Source of the DNA: Escherichia coli phage vB_EcoM_Shy | Reading direction: 5' to 3' (one strand) | Sequence record: MT833282.1 | DNA length: 64,000 nucleotides | Shown here: positions 27,041 to 32,041 of the stretch, piece by piece | Position numbering within the stretch: the stretch's first letter is position 1 | Layout of the letters: every line of letters starts with the position of its first letter | The notes under the pieces: generated by a model | The model's database searches: none | What the model was told of the DNA's origin: nothing | The model's input: only the letters and a program-made list of their open reading frames with translations | Translations under genes and position numbers: made by a program

Positions 27041-27117
27041 CTCTGTTTAGCTCAGCTTGGTAGAGCGTTCCGTTTGGGGCGGTAAGGTCGGAGGTTCAAG
27101 TCCTCCAACAGAGACCA
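27041..27117 (+). tRNA. tRNA-Pro (anticodon UGG)
   Basis: hand-folded cloverleaf: acceptor CTCTGTT/AACAGAG, D-arm GCTC..GAGC, anticodon loop TTTGGGG, T-arm GGAGG-TTCAAGT-CCTCC, CCA encoded. Confidence 0.7.
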
Positions 27118-27293: not shown

Positions 27294-27370
27294 TGCGGGT
27301 ATAGAGAAAGGGCGTCTCACATGTCTCATTAGCATGGTATCGGCAGGTTCGACTCCTGCACCCGCCTCCA
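27294..27370 (+). tRNA. tRNA-Met-like (anticodon CAU)
   Basis: anticodon stem-loop CATGT-CTCATTA-GCATG, T-arm GCAGG-TTCGACT-CCTGC, acceptor with mismatched first pair; Met versus Ile(CAU) not decidable by eye. Confidence 0.55.
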
Positions 27371-27447: not shown

Positions 27448-27524
27448 GGTTAGGAAGCACATAAGGTATGTGCGGTCGCCTGTTAAGCGAATGGCACAGG
27501 GTTCGAATCCCTGACTAACCGCCA
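27448..27524 (+). tRNA. tRNA-Asn (anticodon GUU)
   Basis: D-arm GCAC..GTGC, anticodon loop CTGTTAA, T-arm CAGGG-TTCGAAT-CCCTG, CCA encoded. Confidence 0.7.
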
Positions 27525-27595: not shown

Positions 27596-27683
27596 GTGTC
27601 GTTATCCCGTAGATGGTAGCGGTGGGGACTGTAAATCCCTTGTCATTGAGACTCGGTAGGTTCGACTCCTACACGGCACACCA
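27596..27683 (+). tRNA. tRNA-Tyr (anticodon GUA), long variable arm
   Basis: acceptor GTGTCGT/ACGGCAC, anticodon loop CTGTAAA, 88 nt with extended variable arm, T-loop TTCGACT. Confidence 0.65.
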
Positions 27684-27939: not shown

Positions 27940-28071
27940 CAGAAGACCGTTTACAGCAAAACTTAAACAATCTATTTCTCCGGTAAAGAAAAGGCGAAGG
28001 TTCGATTCCTTCACTCGGCAGATGTCGAGTTGGTGTAATGGTAGCACTTAAGATGATAAACAATGGTCTGG
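27940..28071 (+). ncRNA. structured element D with circularly permuted tRNA-like domain (Y-RNA-like candidate)
   Basis: 5' CAGAAGACCGTTTACAGCAA and 3' CAATGGTCTGG helix enclose T-arm (GAAGG-TTCGATT-CCTTC, 27996-28012), closed acceptor-like hairpin (ACTCGGC-AGAT-GTCGAGT, 28013-28030) and D-arm (GTGT-AATGGTA-GCAC, 28033-28047); order is T-arm, acceptor, D-arm. Confidence 0.5.
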
Positions 28072-28218: not shown

Positions 28219-28294
28219 GGAAGTGTAGCAGAATGGTGATGCGGCAGACTTTTAATCTGACAGGCGATGGGTTCGAATCCCTCCACTTCTACCA
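28219..28294 (+). tRNA. tRNA-Lys (anticodon UUU)
   Basis: acceptor GGAAGTG/CACTTCT, anticodon loop CTTTTAA, T-loop TTCGAAT with weak T-stem; CCA encoded. Confidence 0.6.
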
Positions 28295-28298
28295 ATAT

Positions 28299-28375
28299 GG
28301 TTCAGTCGCAGATAAGGTAATGCAGGGGTTTCATAAGCCCTATGAATGTGGGTTCGATTCCCATCTGAACCTCCA
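28299..28375 (+). tRNA. tRNA with anticodon CAU (Met or Ile-lysidine type)
   Basis: acceptor GGTTCAG/CTGAACC, anticodon loop TTCATAA, T-arm GTGGG-TTCGATT-CCCAT. Confidence 0.6.
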
Positions 28376-28505: not shown

Positions 28506-28787
28506 ACTTCATAATATGTATAATTCAAACACCAATACATGAGCGTTAGACGTAACACAATGTGGGGAAATTTGTTGTACATATTCTGAATAGTTTTCGT
28601 TGCGTAGCGTCTATTTTGCAAATTTAAAATAAATGCAAACGACAATGTTTTCTGGCAGTAGCTTGATAGGCTAAACACCAGTGAGGTCTTCCAATCCCTC
28701 ATCAAAGAATTTGGCGTACTCGCCCACGGTATGATTAATAAGGTGGGCATCTTTAAGGGCTTTCTAAGAGAGCCTTTAAAGATTAAT

Positions 28788-28864: not shown

Positions 28865-29006
28865 AATAGTTAGCAGATTGCTTAGACGACCTTATCGGGT
28901 CTCCGTGTAAGGAGGTGGTCTGTATCTCATGTTTTCCAGAACATGTAAATAATCTGAGAAGGGGCTTTACAGTGTTGCGAAAATACGGTAAGCTTCGAAT
29001 TATAGT

Positions 29007-29089
29007 GTGGGACGATGTTAAGACTCTAAGGCATGAGCAACGGCCTCCAAAACCGTTTCAAAGGGGTTCAACTCCTCCGTCCCATGCCA
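29007..29089 (+). tRNA. atypical tRNA-like gene, possibly tRNA-Trp (anticodon CCA)
   Basis: acceptor GTGGGAC/GTCCCAT and T-arm AGGGG-TTCAACT-CCTCC fold well; anticodon loop CTCCAAA; D region is enlarged (83 nt total) so the call is tentative. Confidence 0.4.
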
Positions 29090-29102: not shown

Positions 29103-29190
29103 GGTAGGTAGCGGCTAATGGTAGCCAAACTGTCTTGAAAACAGTTGCCACTGTAGAGATACGGTGAGGGTTCGACTCCTTTACTTACCG
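29103..29190 (+). tRNA. tRNA-Ser (anticodon UGA), long variable arm
   Basis: anticodon stem-loop ACTGT-CTTGAAA-ACAGT, long variable arm, T-loop TTCGACT, acceptor GGTAGGT/ACTTACC. Confidence 0.65.
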
Positions 29191-29348
29191 CCTAATAAGA
29201 TTTTACACCGTCCATGCTTGCTCGCATTTTCGGTTTATCCCTCGTGTATTGTCGTACACACTGATAAAGCACCTAGTAGGTGTCACGGAGAAGAGATAAT
29301 ATCAAGCTCTCCAAAGGTTCTAGTCACCGGATTAAACAAGACTATGCA

Positions 29349-29370
29349 AAGACCTATTTAGGTCTTTTTA
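29349..29370 (+). terminator. rho-independent terminator-like hairpin within the tRNA array
   Basis: AAGACC-TATTTA-GGTCTT followed by TTTTT. Confidence 0.45.
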
Positions 29371-29448
29371 GAGGGCTTCTAAGGTTATTACAGCTTGTTG
29401 TGGAACCTTGTTGCTTAGGTTCTTAGAAGTTCTCTAAAAAGATTTAAT

Positions 29449-29526
29449 GGGAGATTGACGGTAATTGGTAAACCTACCATCCTTAGAAGTTGGTGTTTGA
29501 GGGTTCGAATCCCTTGTCTCCTACCA
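29449..29526 (+). tRNA. tRNA with Leu-type anticodon UAG, short variable arm (tentative Leu)
   Basis: acceptor GGGAGAT/GTCTCCT (two G-U pairs), anticodon loop CTTAGAA, T-arm GAGGG-TTCGAAT-CCCTT, A73, CCA encoded. Confidence 0.5.
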
Positions 29527-29533
29527 AATTAAT

Positions 29534-29609
29534 GCAGGTGTAGCAAAATGGTTATGCGGCTGACTCTTAATCAGTAAGACGATGGGTTCGAATCCCTCCA
29601 CCTGTACCA
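29534..29609 (+). tRNA. tRNA-Lys (anticodon CUU)
   Basis: paralogue of the 28219 tRNA; anticodon stem-loop CTGA-CTCTTAA-TCAG; same unusual T-stem. Confidence 0.6.
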
Positions 29610-29615
29610 AGCATT

Positions 29616-29692
29616 GGGGTCATAGTTTATATGGTTAAAATTCGAGTTTTGCAAACTTGGGAACTGAGTTCAATTCTCAGTGACTCCACCAA
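29616..29692 (+). tRNA. tRNA-Ala (anticodon UGC)
   Basis: acceptor GGGGTCA/TGACTCC with G3-U70, anticodon loop TTTGCAA, T-arm CTGAG-TTCAATT-CTCAG. Confidence 0.7.
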
Positions 29693-29698
29693 TTAGCG

Positions 29699-29773
29699 CA
29701 TCCATAGTTTAAACGGGAAAATTACAGTCTTCCAAACTGAGGTTGAGGGTTCGATTCCCTCTGGATGCTCCAA
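29699..29773 (+). tRNA. tRNA-Gly (anticodon UCC)
   Basis: acceptor GCATCCA/TGGATGC, anticodon loop CTTCCAA, T-arm GAGGG-TTCGATT-CCCTC. Confidence 0.7.
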
Positions 29774-29780
29774 ATTAATG

Positions 29781-29856
29781 CTCCTATCGTATAATTGGCT
29801 ATTACAGTTGCCTTGTAAGCAACTTATCAGGGTTCGAATCCTTGTGGGAGCACCAA
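29781..29856 (+). tRNA. tRNA-Thr (anticodon UGU)
   Basis: anticodon stem-loop GTTGC-CTTGTAA-GCAAC, T-loop TTCGAAT, acceptor GCTCCTA/TGGGAGC. Confidence 0.7.
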
Positions 29857-29951
29857 TTCAGAGGTCAAGTGAAAGACCGCTTTGAGTCAACTGAAGACCG
29901 TAACAAATTCCACGGAGTTGAGTTAGCGGCACAACTTCAGACCTCTTTCAT

Positions 29952-30026
29952 ACTCGCTTAGTTTATATGGTAAAACATCACCCTTACAAGATGAAGAAAA
30001 AGGTTCAAGTCCTTTAGTGAGTACCA
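29952..30026 (+). tRNA. tRNA-Val (anticodon UAC)
   Basis: anticodon loop CTTACAA, T-arm AAAGG-TTCAAGT-CCTTT, acceptor ACTCGCT/AGTGAGT. Confidence 0.6.
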
Positions 30027-30027
30027 T

Positions 30028-30105
30028 GTTCCAGTATCCCAATTGGCAGAGGATGCAAGCTCAAACCTTGTACTAGTGACGGTTCGAATCCGTCTTGGAA
30101 CACCA
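30028..30105 (+). tRNA. tRNA with Leu-type anticodon CAA, short variable arm (tentative Leu)
   Basis: acceptor GTTCCAG/TTGGAAC, anticodon stem-loop GCAAG-CTCAAAC-CTTGT, T-arm GACGG-TTCGAAT-CCGTC, A73. Confidence 0.5.
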
Positions 30106-30110
30106 ATTTT

Positions 30111-30186
30111 GCAGGATTAGTTCAAATGGATAGAGCAACAGTTTACGAAGCTGTTAATAGGGGTTCGAATCCCTTATCCTGCGCCA
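30111..30186 (+). tRNA. tRNA-Arg (anticodon ACG)
   Basis: acceptor GCAGGAT/ATCCTGC, anticodon stem-loop ACAGT-TTACGAA-GCTGT, T-loop TTCGAAT. Confidence 0.7.
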
Positions 30187-30205
30187 ATTTAAAGAGGCTA
30201 TTTAG

Positions 30206-30763
30206 ATGAGATATTTGAAGTATGCTTCATGGATTTTCTTAGCTTTGTTAGAGCCATTTGCAGCAATCTTAGCAGTTATCTTAGCACCTTTCGTAGTTCC
30301 ATTTTACAGTGAGAAGAAAGGACACTTACCTTTCGGATTTAGATGGATGGAGACATATGACAACCCTATTGATGGTGATGAAGGTCATATCGAACGATGG
30401 GCTAAGATTAGAAAGATTGGTAAGCTAGGTGTCTATATGCAGAGAGTCGGATGGCTCTGGAGAAACAAAGCTTATAACTTCTCCTACCATGTGTTAGGAA
30501 GAGATGTAAAAGATGTTACTAAGTGGAAAGGTAATATCAACGTAAGTTCTAACCCTAAAGATAATCAGACAGGTTATCTCCTAATGTGGAACAGTAATGC
30601 TTGGGGATTATTCGCTTTTATCCCATCAATTAAAGTCTTTGGTAAACAATTCTACTGGAGAATTTATGTTGGGTGGAAACTTAAAAGTGTTGTCCCAGAA
30701 GAAAGAGCATTCTCAAGGGAAAGAGTTATGTTGGCATTCTTTATTCATCCACTGAGAAAGTAA
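30206..30763 (+). CDS. membrane protein embedded in the tRNA array
   Basis: 185-aa ORF with AAAGAGG SD; N-terminal TM helix (WIFLALLEPFAAILAVILAPFVV), aromatic-rich. Confidence 0.5.
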   Translation: MRYLKYASWIFLALLEPFAAILAVILAPFVVPFYSEKKGHLPFGFRWMETYDNPIDGDEGHIERWAKIRKIGKLGVYMQRVGWLWRNKAYNFSYHVLGRDVKDVTKWKGNINVSSNPKDNQTGYLLMWNSNAWGLFAFIPSIKVFGKQFYWRIYVGWKLKSVVPEERAFSRERVMLAFFIHPLRK

Positions 30764-30771
30764 AGATTTAA

Positions 30772-30847
30772 AGGGGATTAGTTTACAAGGTTAAAACCTC
30801 GGTCTTTGAAATCGAAGAAGTTGGTTCAATTCCAACATCCCCCGCCA
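30772..30847 (+). tRNA. tRNA-Gln (anticodon UUG)
   Basis: anticodon stem-loop TCGGT-CTTTGAA-ATCGA, T-arm GTTGG-TTCAATT-CCAAC. Confidence 0.6.
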
Positions 30848-30849
30848 AT

Positions 30850-30926
30850 GCTCCATTACTCCAATTGGCAGAGGCCAGACTTAAAATCTGTGTTATGTAT
30901 CGGTTCGAATCCGATATGGAGTACCA
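30850..30926 (+). tRNA. tRNA with Leu-type anticodon UAA, short variable arm (tentative Leu)
   Basis: anticodon loop CTTAAAA, T-arm ATCGG-TTCGAAT-CCGAT, acceptor GCTCCAT/ATGGAGT, A73. Confidence 0.5.
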
Positions 30927-30931
30927 AATTT

Positions 30932-31007
30932 AGCGGTATAGCATAACTGGCAATGCAGCAGTCTCTGAAGCTGTCTTATTAAGGTTCAAATCCTTATGCC
31001 GCTGCCA
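30932..31007 (+). tRNA. tRNA-Gln (anticodon CUG)
   Basis: anticodon stem-loop GCAGT-CTCTGAA-GCTGT, T-loop TTCAAAT, acceptor AGCGGTA/TGCCGCT. Confidence 0.55.
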
Positions 31008-31212: not shown

Positions 31213-31947
31213 ATGAAAGAGATGACAGAACAAGGTAAGGAGATTTTTAGTCTCTTAAAAACCGGTAGAGGGTTTTCTAATCCCCTTATTACTGGTGCAG
31301 CAGTTCTCGGTGGAACCGTAGCTGCCTCTACATCACTTGTAAGCTCTATTAGCTCTGTAACAGACCCTACAATAAAGGATAAACTTGTTGCTGCTGGACT
31401 TACAACAGTTCTGCTTAACAGCTTTACAACGAGTCTGACAAGCACTACATCGACTACTAAAACGCTGACAGATTATGGTCAAAAGTCTATTGATGAGTTT
31501 TCATCACGTATGCAGGTAGCAAAAGGATATTCCAATGTTATGGGTGCAGCAGGAGAACAAGTCGGTTGTACGCCATTTAGTGGTATTATGGGCGTTGCTA
31601 CAGAGTATGGTCAAAAAGCTATTGATACGATTAACAGTGCATTAGACGGTGTTAATGATGTATTAAGTGACTTACAAGACGCTATTGACAAAGGTCTTGA
31701 TACTATTTCTGATTTAGCTAACCAAGCTGTTAGTAAGATTAATGAAGGTATCTCGAAGATTACAGCTTATGCAGATGAAGTTGTGCAGATGATTGAAGAA
31801 GAAGCTGCCCTTATTGCAGAGTACCTTAAAACGAATATCAATGGGTTCTTAGCAGGTATCTTACCAGACTGGTTTGATGATGCTTGTAAAACTGGTGTAA
31901 TTGATACTATTGCAACACCAGAAATGAAGAACGCATTACAGAAATAA
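31213..31947 (+). CDS. hypothetical Ser/Thr-rich protein
   Basis: start re-assigned to ATG 31213 (the track start at 31150 lies inside tRNA-Phe); low-complexity S/T-rich centre; stop 1 nt before tRNA-Ser. Confidence 0.5.
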   Translation: MKEMTEQGKEIFSLLKTGRGFSNPLITGAAVLGGTVAASTSLVSSISSVTDPTIKDKLVAAGLTTVLLNSFTTSLTSTTSTTKTLTDYGQKSIDEFSSRMQVAKGYSNVMGAAGEQVGCTPFSGIMGVATEYGQKAIDTINSALDGVNDVLSDLQDAIDKGLDTISDLANQAVSKINEGISKITAYADEVVQMIEEEAALIAEYLKTNINGFLAGILPDWFDDACKTGVIDTIATPEMKNALQK

Positions 31948-31948
31948 T

Positions 31949-32041
31949 GGAAGATTAACCCTAAAAGGTAAGGGAGCAGTTTGCTAAACTGCCAGTAGCT
32001 GAGAAATCGGTGTACCAGTTCAAGTCTGGTATCTTCCTCCA
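31949..32041 (+). tRNA. tRNA-Ser (anticodon GCU), long variable arm
   Basis: acceptor GGAAGAT/ATCTTCC, anticodon stem-loop GCAGT-TTGCTAA-ACTGC, long variable arm, T-arm ACCAG-TTCAAGT-CTGGT. Confidence 0.75.

Follow-up and report, generated by a model that had tools for sequence, protein, structure and literature searches.

Reviews describe leucine transfer RNAs (tRNA-Leu) as having a long variable arm everywhere except in animal mitochondria (PMC9976931). A type I tRNA-Leu, in which the variable region is a short loop, has been published from such mitochondria and from the bacterium Streptomyces coelicolor, where it has the anticodon CAA (Fan et al., NAR 2019, PMC6614811). What the leucyl-tRNA synthetase (LeuRS) of Escherichia coli recognises has been worked out in some detail: its identity set comprises A73, A14, the A15-U48 pair, G18G19, A20a and the tertiary pairs that join the D loop to the T loop. 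The enzyme needs neither the long arm nor the anticodon, and it still charges a minimal tRNA-Leu from which the arm is missing (PMC9976931; PMC6614811). Here, we describe three tRNA-Leu genes, with the anticodons UAG, CAA and UAA, in the tRNA gene cluster of Escherichia coli phage vB_EcoM_Shy (sequence record MT833282.1). The stretch of this genome that was analysed, 64,000 nucleotides (nt) long, is called the window below. The genes themselves are present in public records, and type I tRNA-Leu as such is known from the two systems just mentioned. We present evidence that the three phage genes belong to a widespread family of short leucine tRNAs, which probably are functional in the enterobacterial host.

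Three leucine tRNA genes with short variable loops

ARAGORN identifies 26 tRNA genes in the window, all on the + strand and located between positions 27041 and 32121, and the Rfam tRNA model (RF00005) confirms its calls in the cluster. An initial annotation, made by folding the sequence by hand, had proposed that three tRNAs with Leu anticodons (UAG, CAA and UAA) were about 77 nt long, carried A73, and lacked the long variable arm. The two programs agree with this description. They give lengths of 77–78 nt and variable loops of 5, 6 and 7 nt, ARAGORN assigns the same three anticodons, and the Rfam covariance model matches each gene over its full length (model positions 1–71 of 71). The initial annotation had also considered that hand-folding might have misplaced the anticodon loops. 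This concern can be dropped, as ARAGORN and Rfam put the loops at the same positions (Table 1).

In the ARAGORN cloverleaves, all three genes have an acceptor stem of 7 base pairs (bp), a D stem of 3 bp, a T stem of 5 bp, A73 and an encoded CCA, together with an intact 7-nt anticodon loop containing U33. The short D stem, in which positions 13 and 22 form no pair, is a class II feature and is found in all three. The other class II feature, a variable region of at least 10 nt that forms a stem-loop, is found in none of them. Type I tRNA-Leu has been defined by a Leu anticodon and a variable loop of about 5 nt (minimum 5 nt) that ends at position 48 (PMC6614811), and the loops in the window, of 5–7 nt and ending at U48, are of this kind. 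The 3-bp D stem in such short tRNAs appears either to be left over from a class II ancestor or to be something that LeuRS requires.

The three genes score 40.0, 43.6 and 47.1 bits against RF00005 (E values from 5.5e-6 to 6e-8), for which the gathering score is 29 bits. Apart from tRNA-Phe (45.0) and tRNA-Ser(GCU) (46.2), these are the lowest scores in the cluster, all of them well over the threshold. The tRNA-Leu(UAG) has several irregular features, namely a G1·U72 pair, one additional C in the D stem, a U30·U40 mismatch, and A37 where the host has G37. Long variable arms are retained elsewhere in the cluster, by the tRNA-Tyr (88 nt) and by the two tRNA-Ser (90 and 93 nt).

Conservation and covariation

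The tRNA region of the window is 94–98% identical to that of Felixounavirus phages infecting E. coli, Salmonella or Shigella, such as JH2, CL1 and pinkbiff, and three tRNA-Leu are already annotated in many GenBank records of Felix O1-like phages. For tRNA-Leu(CAA), there are 69 identical GenBank phage records and a further 178 at 95–99% identity, making 247 at 95% or above, which include Mooglevirus and Suspvirus. For tRNA-Leu(UAG), 70 GenBank records match at 99% or above, with 100% identity in JH2, Alf5, phiSUSP1 and Sf13. In the tRNA-Leu(UAG) of pinkbiff the entire anticodon stem is different, yet it is fully complementary, so that the changes are compensated throughout.

The tRNA-Leu(UAA) differs from its relatives. 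None of its 252 matching GenBank records reaches 99% identity, and the matches shown, Felix O1 included, span 79 nt. The D loop in the window (30867–30876) reads GGCAGAGGCC, as against GGCAGAGAGGCC in the relatives, and is shorter by 2 nt (AG). Since all of the relatives have the 79-nt form, the length of 77 nt reflects a deletion of 2 nt, private to this genome, within a repeat of AG in the D arm, which is either a real slip in the repeat or a sequencing error. The deletion shortens the loop beyond G19, so that the assignment of A20a and A22 in this gene is uncertain.

The three sequences from the window were aligned with other short tRNA-Leu, to give 142 distinct sequences in all. When the type I cloverleaf is imposed on the alignment, 98.3% of cells are paired, and compensatory changes are found in all 20 of the 20 pairs. 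The covariation score is 0.942, compared with 0.12–0.16 in controls with the 3' partners shifted along and 0.22 in shuffled alignments. The variable loop has 5 nt in 130 of the 142 sequences. Twelve columns are invariant (U8, A14, A15, G18, A20a, A22, A35, U48, U54, C56, A58 and A73), and G19 and U55 are more than 90% conserved. In the window, A14, A15-U48, G18G19, A20a and U54/U55/C56/A58 are all present in the tRNA-Leu with anticodon CAA and in that with UAG. The D arm, with its 3-bp stem and a loop of the form N-AAUUGGYAGA, is shared with leuX, leuZ and leuW of E. coli, as well as with type II tRNA-Leu from phage contigs.

The sequences fall into two subtypes according to the core of the molecule. 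The major subtype, with C13 and a C12-G23 pair, accounts for 130 of the 142, and has A9 in 120 of these and G9 in 10; the CAA and UAA genes of the window belong here, with A9. The minor subtype has G9 and G12-C23, as does type II tRNA-Leu, together with U-rich loops, and contains the tRNA-Leu(UAG) of the window and the T5-like allele described below. The existence of two core subtypes thus suggests that the arm may have been lost more than once, and that the core may have been re-modelled in the major subtype.

A covariance model was also built from 21 type II tRNA-Leu only, with the anticodon columns included. It ranks the three tRNA-Leu of the window 1, 2 and 4 of the 26 tRNAs (53.8, 50.4 and 49.5 bits), with tRNA-Leu(CAA) at the top. 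Its discrimination is weak, because tRNA-Cys (50.2) and tRNA-Glu (49.2) lie within a few bits. For the counterparts in the related phage Sf14, the isotype scores of tRNAscan-SE 2.0 place Leu highest for all three (67.4, 49.1 and 60.2), and are described as ‘consistent’ (PMC12482277). Mis-called isotypes were considered as an explanation and ruled out on the combined evidence of ARAGORN, Rfam and these published scores.

Type I and type II alleles in T5-like phages

In phage T5, the tRNA-Leu(UAG) gene that follows tRNA-Ala is 85 nt long and of type II (L251:7625–7709). In the T5-like phage SUT_E1520 the upstream flank is identical, and the corresponding slot behind it holds a type I tRNA-Leu(UAG) of 77 nt (L002:6530–6606). 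Among the GenBank records of T5-like phages, the slot is occupied by the type I allele in 164 and by the type II allele in 54 (T5 and 53 others), and the Ala-Leu module is swapped as one block. The T5-like type I gene is 82–85% identical to the tRNA-Leu(UAG) of the window. Both alleles are therefore found in one slot of closely related phages with the same hosts, and so replace each other, which implies that the type I and the type II form of tRNA-Leu(UAG) would be interchangeable in enterobacterial hosts.

It is worth adding that, according to a RefSeq note on T5 tRNA-Leu1(UAG) (T5t10), a derivative with the anticodon CUA is an amber suppressor, and the tRNA is hence functional in E. coli. 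The T5 copy is of type II, and therefore this evidence does not extend to the type I form. For the same reason, the old T5 biochemistry was rejected as proof that type I tRNAs are charged: the T5 tRNA-Leu(UAG) is the 85-nt type II molecule, and type I is found only in relatives of T5.

Distribution beyond the genus

Three tRNA-Leu of 77–78 nt are present in Kolesnikvirus phages of Hafnia and Erwinia, and one T5-like phage has two of 77 nt. Both Kolesnikvirus phages also have, upstream of the tRNA cluster, a tRNA-like gene called by ARAGORN with a 6-nt anticodon loop (UUUUGC, ‘tRNA-???’; L003:3528–3600 and L004:3530–3600).

A wider survey used as its seed the 14-nt D-arm motif CCAATTGGCAGAGG, which is common to the CAA and UAA genes of the window, and scanned IMG/VR and one genome per prokaryotic species; the frequencies that it gives are biased by this seed, and refer to the matches listed. 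In IMG/VR there are at least 120 loci with the motif, and in at least 77 of them it lies inside a tRNA, in every case a tRNA-Leu of 74–78 nt, with six different Leu anticodons represented. The prokaryotic genomes likewise give at least 120 loci, at least 61 of them with the motif in a tRNA, again always a tRNA-Leu of 74–78 nt. No tRNA of 80 nt or longer carries the motif among the matches listed from either source. Among those listed from bacteria, most are single UAA or CAA genes, many of them in Actinobacteria, for example Nocardia, Rhodococcus, Gordonia, Mycobacterium, Arthrobacter and Corynebacterium. The phage-type D arm was also noted in single-copy tRNA-Leu(UAA) or tRNA-Leu(CAA) genes of 75–77 nt in some metagenome-assembled genomes of Planctomycetota.

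In a sample of viral loci (again seeded with the motif, and with GC contents of 0.30–0.65), the long arm is present in 37 of 39 tRNA-Ser and 24 of 25 tRNA-Tyr, while 125 of 146 tRNA-Leu are short. Of the Leu genes in the viral loci that lack the exact seed motif, 47 are short and 21 long. Leu is thus the only long-arm family to have lost its arm, which fits the published observation that seryl-tRNA synthetase needs the arm and LeuRS does not.

The breadth of short tRNA-Leu across phages and bacteria is not in doubt. An oddity of one genome or one genus is excluded by their presence in Kolesnikvirus, in T5-like phages, in IMG/VR contigs and in bacterial genomes. The suggestion in the initial annotation that these might be ‘unusual phage tRNAs’ is therefore only partly upheld: they do appear to be genuine type I leucine tRNAs, with a bearing on leucine identity, but among phages (Ounavirinae, T5-like phages and viral contigs) they are not unusual.

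Function and alternative explanations

On the basis of these observations, we consider it probable that the three genes encode functional type I leucine tRNAs, which are charged by the LeuRS of the host and decode Leu codons of the phage. The elements read by LeuRS would all be retained, namely A73, U8-A14, A15-U48, G18G19 and A20a within a D loop of 11 nt closed by a D stem of 3 bp, and a T loop with U54/U55/C56/A58. The long variable arm would be all that is lost, and bacterial LeuRS can do without it. Given that the identity elements are kept and the arm is dispensable, host LeuRS would be expected to charge these tRNAs with leucine. The UAA anticodon would then read UUA and UUG, CAA would read UUG, and UAG would read CUA and CUG and perhaps more of the CUN codons. 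More generally, the set of 26 tRNAs would let the AT-rich phage translate its own genes with little reliance on the host pool. In 66 open reading frames (ORFs) of the window, the Leu codons are distributed as UUA 30%, CUU 26%, CUG 15%, UUG 12%, CUA 11% and CUC 6%; in E. coli, CUG is the dominant Leu codon. In the same ORFs, 42% of Lys codons are AAG and 44% of Arg codons are AGA, matching the tRNA-Lys(CUU) and tRNA-Arg(UCU) of the phage. A tblastn search of the 64-kb window with E. coli LeuS gave chance matches only (E > 1), and hence no LeuRS homologue.

Several points weigh against this reading. The most direct is that E. coli LeuRS did not charge the type I tRNA-Leu(CAA) of S. coelicolor, from which the authors concluded that the enzyme charges type II only (PMC6614811). 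That tRNA has C48, whereas all 142 of the 142 sequences aligned here have U48, the partner of A15, and this difference may be the cause of the failed charging. The search for a synthetase covered 64 kb of a genome of about 88 kb. The tRNA-Leu(UAG) has a bulged D stem, a U·U mismatch, and A37 in place of G37, and the private 2-nt deletion in the D loop may weaken the tRNA-Leu(UAA) of the window. The type II Leu model, even with its anticodon columns included, separates Leu from Cys and Glu by a few bits only. Finally, expression of the tRNA-Leu genes of the window, leucylation of their products by host LeuRS, and decoding are predictions from the sequence.

The irregularities of tRNA-Leu(UAG), the deletion in tRNA-Leu(UAA), and Rfam scores that are among the lowest in the cluster could also be taken as signs that the short Leu genes are decaying pseudogenes, or that they specify RNAs with no role in translation, such as decoys or competitive inhibitors of nucleases; over-expressed viral tRNAs were raised as possible competitive inhibitors in the PARIS study (PMC12409363). 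We regard this as very improbable, in view of the pervasive covariation and the invariant identity and tertiary bases in 142 distinct sequences, the near-identical sequences in hundreds of phage genomes, the intact 7-nt anticodon loops with U33 and the encoded CCA, and the fit of the anticodons to codons that the phage uses heavily. It is harder still to believe that the tRNAs are charged with some other amino acid and that the phage recodes its Leu codons. There is a precedent, in that a class I shape combined with a Leu anticodon gave rise to some of the mitochondrial reassignments (PMC7609411), and for the Sf14 counterpart of tRNA-Leu(UAG) the scores for Ile2 (65.7) and Lys (63.4) come close to that for Leu (67.4) (PMC12482277). 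Nevertheless, it is the Leu model that comes first in Sf14 (PMC12482277), and the D arm has the signature of tRNA-Leu, since its 3-bp stem and AAUUGGYAGA loop are shared with leuX, leuZ and leuW and also with type II Leu tRNAs on phage contigs; A73 and A15-U48 point the same way. In addition, the type I and type II alleles exchange in the same slot of T5-like phages, and Leu codons take up a normal share of the phage ORFs.

A different proposal is that loss of the arm is adaptive, hiding the phage tRNA-Leu from host defence effectors that recognise class II tRNAs by their variable arm. This would add a selective reason to the reading as host-charged leucine tRNAs rather than replace it, because the molecules are still leucine tRNAs. 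The variable loops of class II tRNAs do serve as targets. Type II tRNAs are cleaved by Schlafens in humans, Schlafens of bacteria protect against phage, AbiEii seems to favour class II tRNAs, and the arm has been lost solely in Leu, the class II family whose synthetase tolerates the loss; loop positions 32, 37 and 38 of tRNA-Leu(UAG), moreover, are not the same as in host leuW. We nonetheless think the proposal unlikely. No defence system is known that targets the variable arm of tRNA-Leu, T5 and 53 of its relatives thrive with a type II tRNA-Leu(UAG), and nuclease escape was rejected for Sf14 in the analysis of that phage (PMC12482277). Evasion also offers no obvious motive for the single chromosomal short tRNA-Leu of many bacteria, many of them Actinobacteria. 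A more extensive version, to which we give similarly little credence, holds that short tRNA-Leu is the default of phage tRNA clusters, a portable adaptor pared down to the universal LeuRS identity set; that the arm was lost at least twice, because its loss takes away a handle for variable-loop nucleases of the PtuAB/Septu type, AbiEii/MenT nucleotidyltransferases and Schlafen-like RNases; and that E. coli LeuRS charges natural type I tRNAs. For tRNA-Leu, the link with defence and with evasion of nucleases remains speculative.

The PARIS effector AriB cleaves E. coli tRNA-Lys at U36-AAUC↓A41 (PMC12409363). The equivalent sequence is retained in the tRNA-Lys(CUU) of the phage, and is different in the Lys(UUU), Thr(UGU) and Asn(GUU) tRNAs (Table 1). 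Thus several of the tRNA species that AriB is known to target have changes at the cleavage site or beside it. The 7-nt anticodon loop of tRNA-Lys(UUU), CUUUUAA, is the same as that of E. coli tRNA-Lys.

Other features of the tRNA cluster

The cluster covers 19 amino acids, with no tRNA-Trp called by ARAGORN, and the 3' CCA is encoded in 25 of the 26 genes, the exception being tRNA-Ser(UGA). The gene order is the same in phage pinkbiff, and the same order of 26 tRNAs for 19 amino acids has been published for Sf14 (2025 paper, PMC12482277). The positions of the features discussed are collected in Table 1.

Table 1. Positions in the window of the leucine tRNA genes and of other features of the tRNA cluster
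Feature	Position	Strand	Length	Anticodon position	Variable region	Other characteristics	Basis
tRNA-Leu(UAG), type I	29449–29526	+	78 nt including encoded CCA	29484–29486	UGUUU, 29494–29498, 5 nt		ARAGORN and Rfam
tRNA-Leu(CAA), type I	30028–30105	+	78 nt including encoded CCA	30062–30064	ACUAGU, 30072–30077, 6 nt	D arm UCC-CAAUUGGCAGA-GGA	ARAGORN and Rfam
tRNA-Leu(UAA), type I	30850–30926	+	77 nt including encoded CCA	30882–30884	GUUAUGU, 30892–30898, 7 nt	G1·U72	ARAGORN and Rfam
tRNA-Tyr(GUA)	27596–27683	+	88 nt		long arm		
tRNA-Ser(UGA)	29103–29192	+	90 nt		long arm	CCA not encoded	
tRNA-Ser(GCU)	31949–32041	+	93 nt		long arm		
CAU tRNA 1	27294–27370	+					ARAGORN; sequence comparison
CAU tRNA 2	28299–28375	+				elongator-like; U73; adjoins tRNA-Ile(GAU), as T5 tRNA-Met (T5t01) does	
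tRNA-Lys(UUU)	28219–28294	+				positions 36–41 UAAUCU (host UAAUCA)	
tRNA-Lys(CUU)	29534–29609	+				positions 36–41 UAAUCA	
tRNA-Thr(UGU)	29780–29855	+				AriB site equivalent UAAGCA	
tRNA-Asn(GUU)	27448–27524	+				AriB site equivalent UAAGCG	
tRNA-Gln(UUG)	30772–30847	+					ARAGORN
tRNA-Gln(CUG)	30932–31007	+				just beyond 29449–30926	ARAGORN
ORF, DUF7338 / phrog_2143	30206–30763						
ORF, DUF7217 / phrog_2114	31213–31947						
tRNA-like fold	29005–29087						
Hairpin	29358–29447						
Partial tRNA match	27963–28013						
Partial tmRNA match	28599–28787						

The initial annotation had further listed two CAU tRNAs and pairs of Lys (UUU/CUU) and Gln (UUG/CUG) genes as duplicated, all within 29449–30926. 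ARAGORN finds every one of them, some outside that interval, but duplication is not a correct description. The two CAU tRNAs are of different kinds, one resembling initiator tRNA (fMet) and the other an elongator. The two Gln genes parallel the pair of Gln isoacceptors that E. coli itself has, and tRNA-Lys(CUU) is an isoacceptor with no corresponding tRNA in the host, as stated for Sf14 (PMC12482277). The pairs are distinct tRNA species, and are ordinary for a near-complete phage tRNA set.

CAU tRNA 1 has a U1·C72 mismatch followed by G2-C71, C3-G70 and G4-C69, as in the acceptor stem of the E. coli initiator, together with U73 and U37. Its closest match (71%) is a T5 tRNA with the annotation ‘initiator tRNA fMet’. 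The three G-C pairs found in the anticodon stem of bacterial initiators are absent from CAU tRNA 1, and its Sf14 counterpart was not classed as fMet by tRNAscan-SE (PMC12482277). CAU tRNA 2 looks like the elongator Met type, and may be either a tRNA-Met or a lysidine-modified tRNA-Ile. A lysidine-Ile identity (tRNA-Ile2) was considered for each of the two and found no support, neither being closer to E. coli ileX or T5 Ile2 than to Met or fMet tRNAs. For the Sf14 counterparts the Met score is above that for Ile2 (PMC12482277). The AUA codon, which a tRNA-Ile2 would concern, is rare, at 6% of Ile codons in the ORFs of the window.

The cluster also contains two ORFs belonging to families of unknown function, of which the DUF7338 / phrog_2143 ORF has relatives in T4-like phages. 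Of the non-coding features, the tRNA-like fold has a 10-bp closing stem, a T-arm-like sequence GGGGUUCAACUCC, and a 9-nt loop CCUCCAAAA that contains CCA. Its minimum free energy is -27.2 kcal/mol (z -2.1), and in two relatives it is found with 99% conservation. Against the Rfam tRNA-Sec model it scores 23 bits, and against the type II tRNA-Leu model built here 13.6 bits. Because Trp is the sole amino acid with no called tRNA, this fold may be a degenerate or odd tRNA-Trp. Immediately before base 1 of tRNA-Leu(UAG) there ends a long, near-perfect hairpin (-37.6 kcal/mol, z -5.05, with 0 of 200 shuffles as stable), which has a small hairpin and a run of T directly upstream of it. It is possibly a processing site of the RNase III type, or a terminator between sub-clusters of tRNA genes. 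A scan of the tRNA cluster for promoters and terminators gave counts no higher than in shuffled sequences. The non-coding gaps of the cluster also contain two weak matches, each of them partial, one to tRNA (22 bits) and one to tmRNA (17 bits). The T5 cluster, for its part, has several annotated ‘tRNA-like stable RNAs’.

Implications

The phages of E. coli, Salmonella and Shigella considered here have well-conserved, natural type I leucine tRNAs, and no LeuRS of their own in the 64 kb examined. If host LeuRS does charge them, the statement that E. coli LeuRS charges type II only is wrong, and the A15-U48 pair may account for the Streptomyces result. In that case, natural minimal substrates would be at hand for studies of leucine identity and of editing. 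The pattern in which Leu drops the arm, and Ser and Tyr never do, would provide a natural read-out of which synthetases require it. For annotation, expectations for tRNA-Leu that are based on length or on class II structure break down in phage genomes.

Comparison with known systems

In our search of the literature, no paper was found in which the tRNA-Leu of Felix O1-like or T5-like phages are identified as type I, or in which the breadth of the family and its invariant core are described. Short-armed tRNA-Leu is not mentioned in the Sf14 tRNA paper (PMC12482277), in a virus-wide survey of tRNAs, or in a review of non-canonical tRNAs (PMC7609411). The nearest remark concerns the tRNA-Leu(TAG) of a mycobacterial tRNA cluster, for which ‘a short variable loop’ was noted, in contrast to the isoacceptor normally encoded in the genome (Behra et al. 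2019, PMC6582537). This tRNA probably belongs to the same family; the remark is a single sentence, and does not extend to identity elements, distribution or phage origin.

A close published parallel is the type I tRNA-Leu(CAA) of S. coelicolor (Fan et al., NAR 2019, PMC6614811). Its variable loop of 5 nt, A44 C45 A46 G47 C48, is very like the ACAGU of many family members. As in the phages, it occurs alongside tRNA-Ser and tRNA-Tyr with long arms, with type II tRNA-Leu also present in some genomes. It is leucylated by a bacterial LeuRS, and what matters is the length of the loop and not its sequence (PMC6614811). It differs in having C48, where the sequences described here have U48, and it is charged by the S. 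coelicolor and human mitochondrial LeuRS and not by that of E. coli (PMC6614811). Furthermore, it is encoded on the chromosome of a high-GC actinomycete, while the tRNAs of the window must work in E. coli or Salmonella. We infer its membership of the family from the loop alone (ACAGC, against the common ACAGU). The type I tRNA-Leu of animal mitochondria likewise has A73 and A14 as identity elements (PMC9976931), but it is organellar, often structurally degenerate, and served by a dedicated mitochondrial LeuRS.

In the host itself, leuX (CAA), leuZ (UAA) and leuW (UAG) have the same anticodons as the phage genes, and share with them A73, the 3-bp D stem, a D loop of the form AAUYGGUAGA, A15 and the T loop. 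They differ in their length of 85–87 nt and in the variable stem-loop of 13–15 nt, which is also found in T5 tRNA-Leu1, and their G9, G12-C23 and G13 correspond to A9, C12-G23 and C13 in the major phage subtype. In leuW, position 37 is G, in contrast to the A37 of the phage tRNA-Leu(UAG). The T5 tRNA-Leu1(UAG) (T5t10) is similar in being a coliphage tRNA-Leu(UAG) that adjoins tRNA-Ala, and different in being of type II, with 85 nt. Phage tRNAs that evade nucleases (van den Berg 2023; T5 tRNA-Lys against PARIS) are recognised by substitutions, relative to the tRNA of the host, at the site that the nuclease recognises or cleaves, and by resistance to cleavage; for tRNA-Leu no nuclease is known.

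Engineered arm-less or minimal versions of E. coli tRNA-Leu (Asahara 1993/1998; Tocchini-Valentini 2000; Larkin 2002, per PMC9976931) are charged provided that A73 and the tertiary pairs linking D loop and T loop are intact, and these are features that the phage tRNAs keep. Those molecules are laboratory constructs, whereas the phage tRNAs are natural and conserved, and in the major subtype have a core that is re-modelled (A9, C12-G23 and C13).

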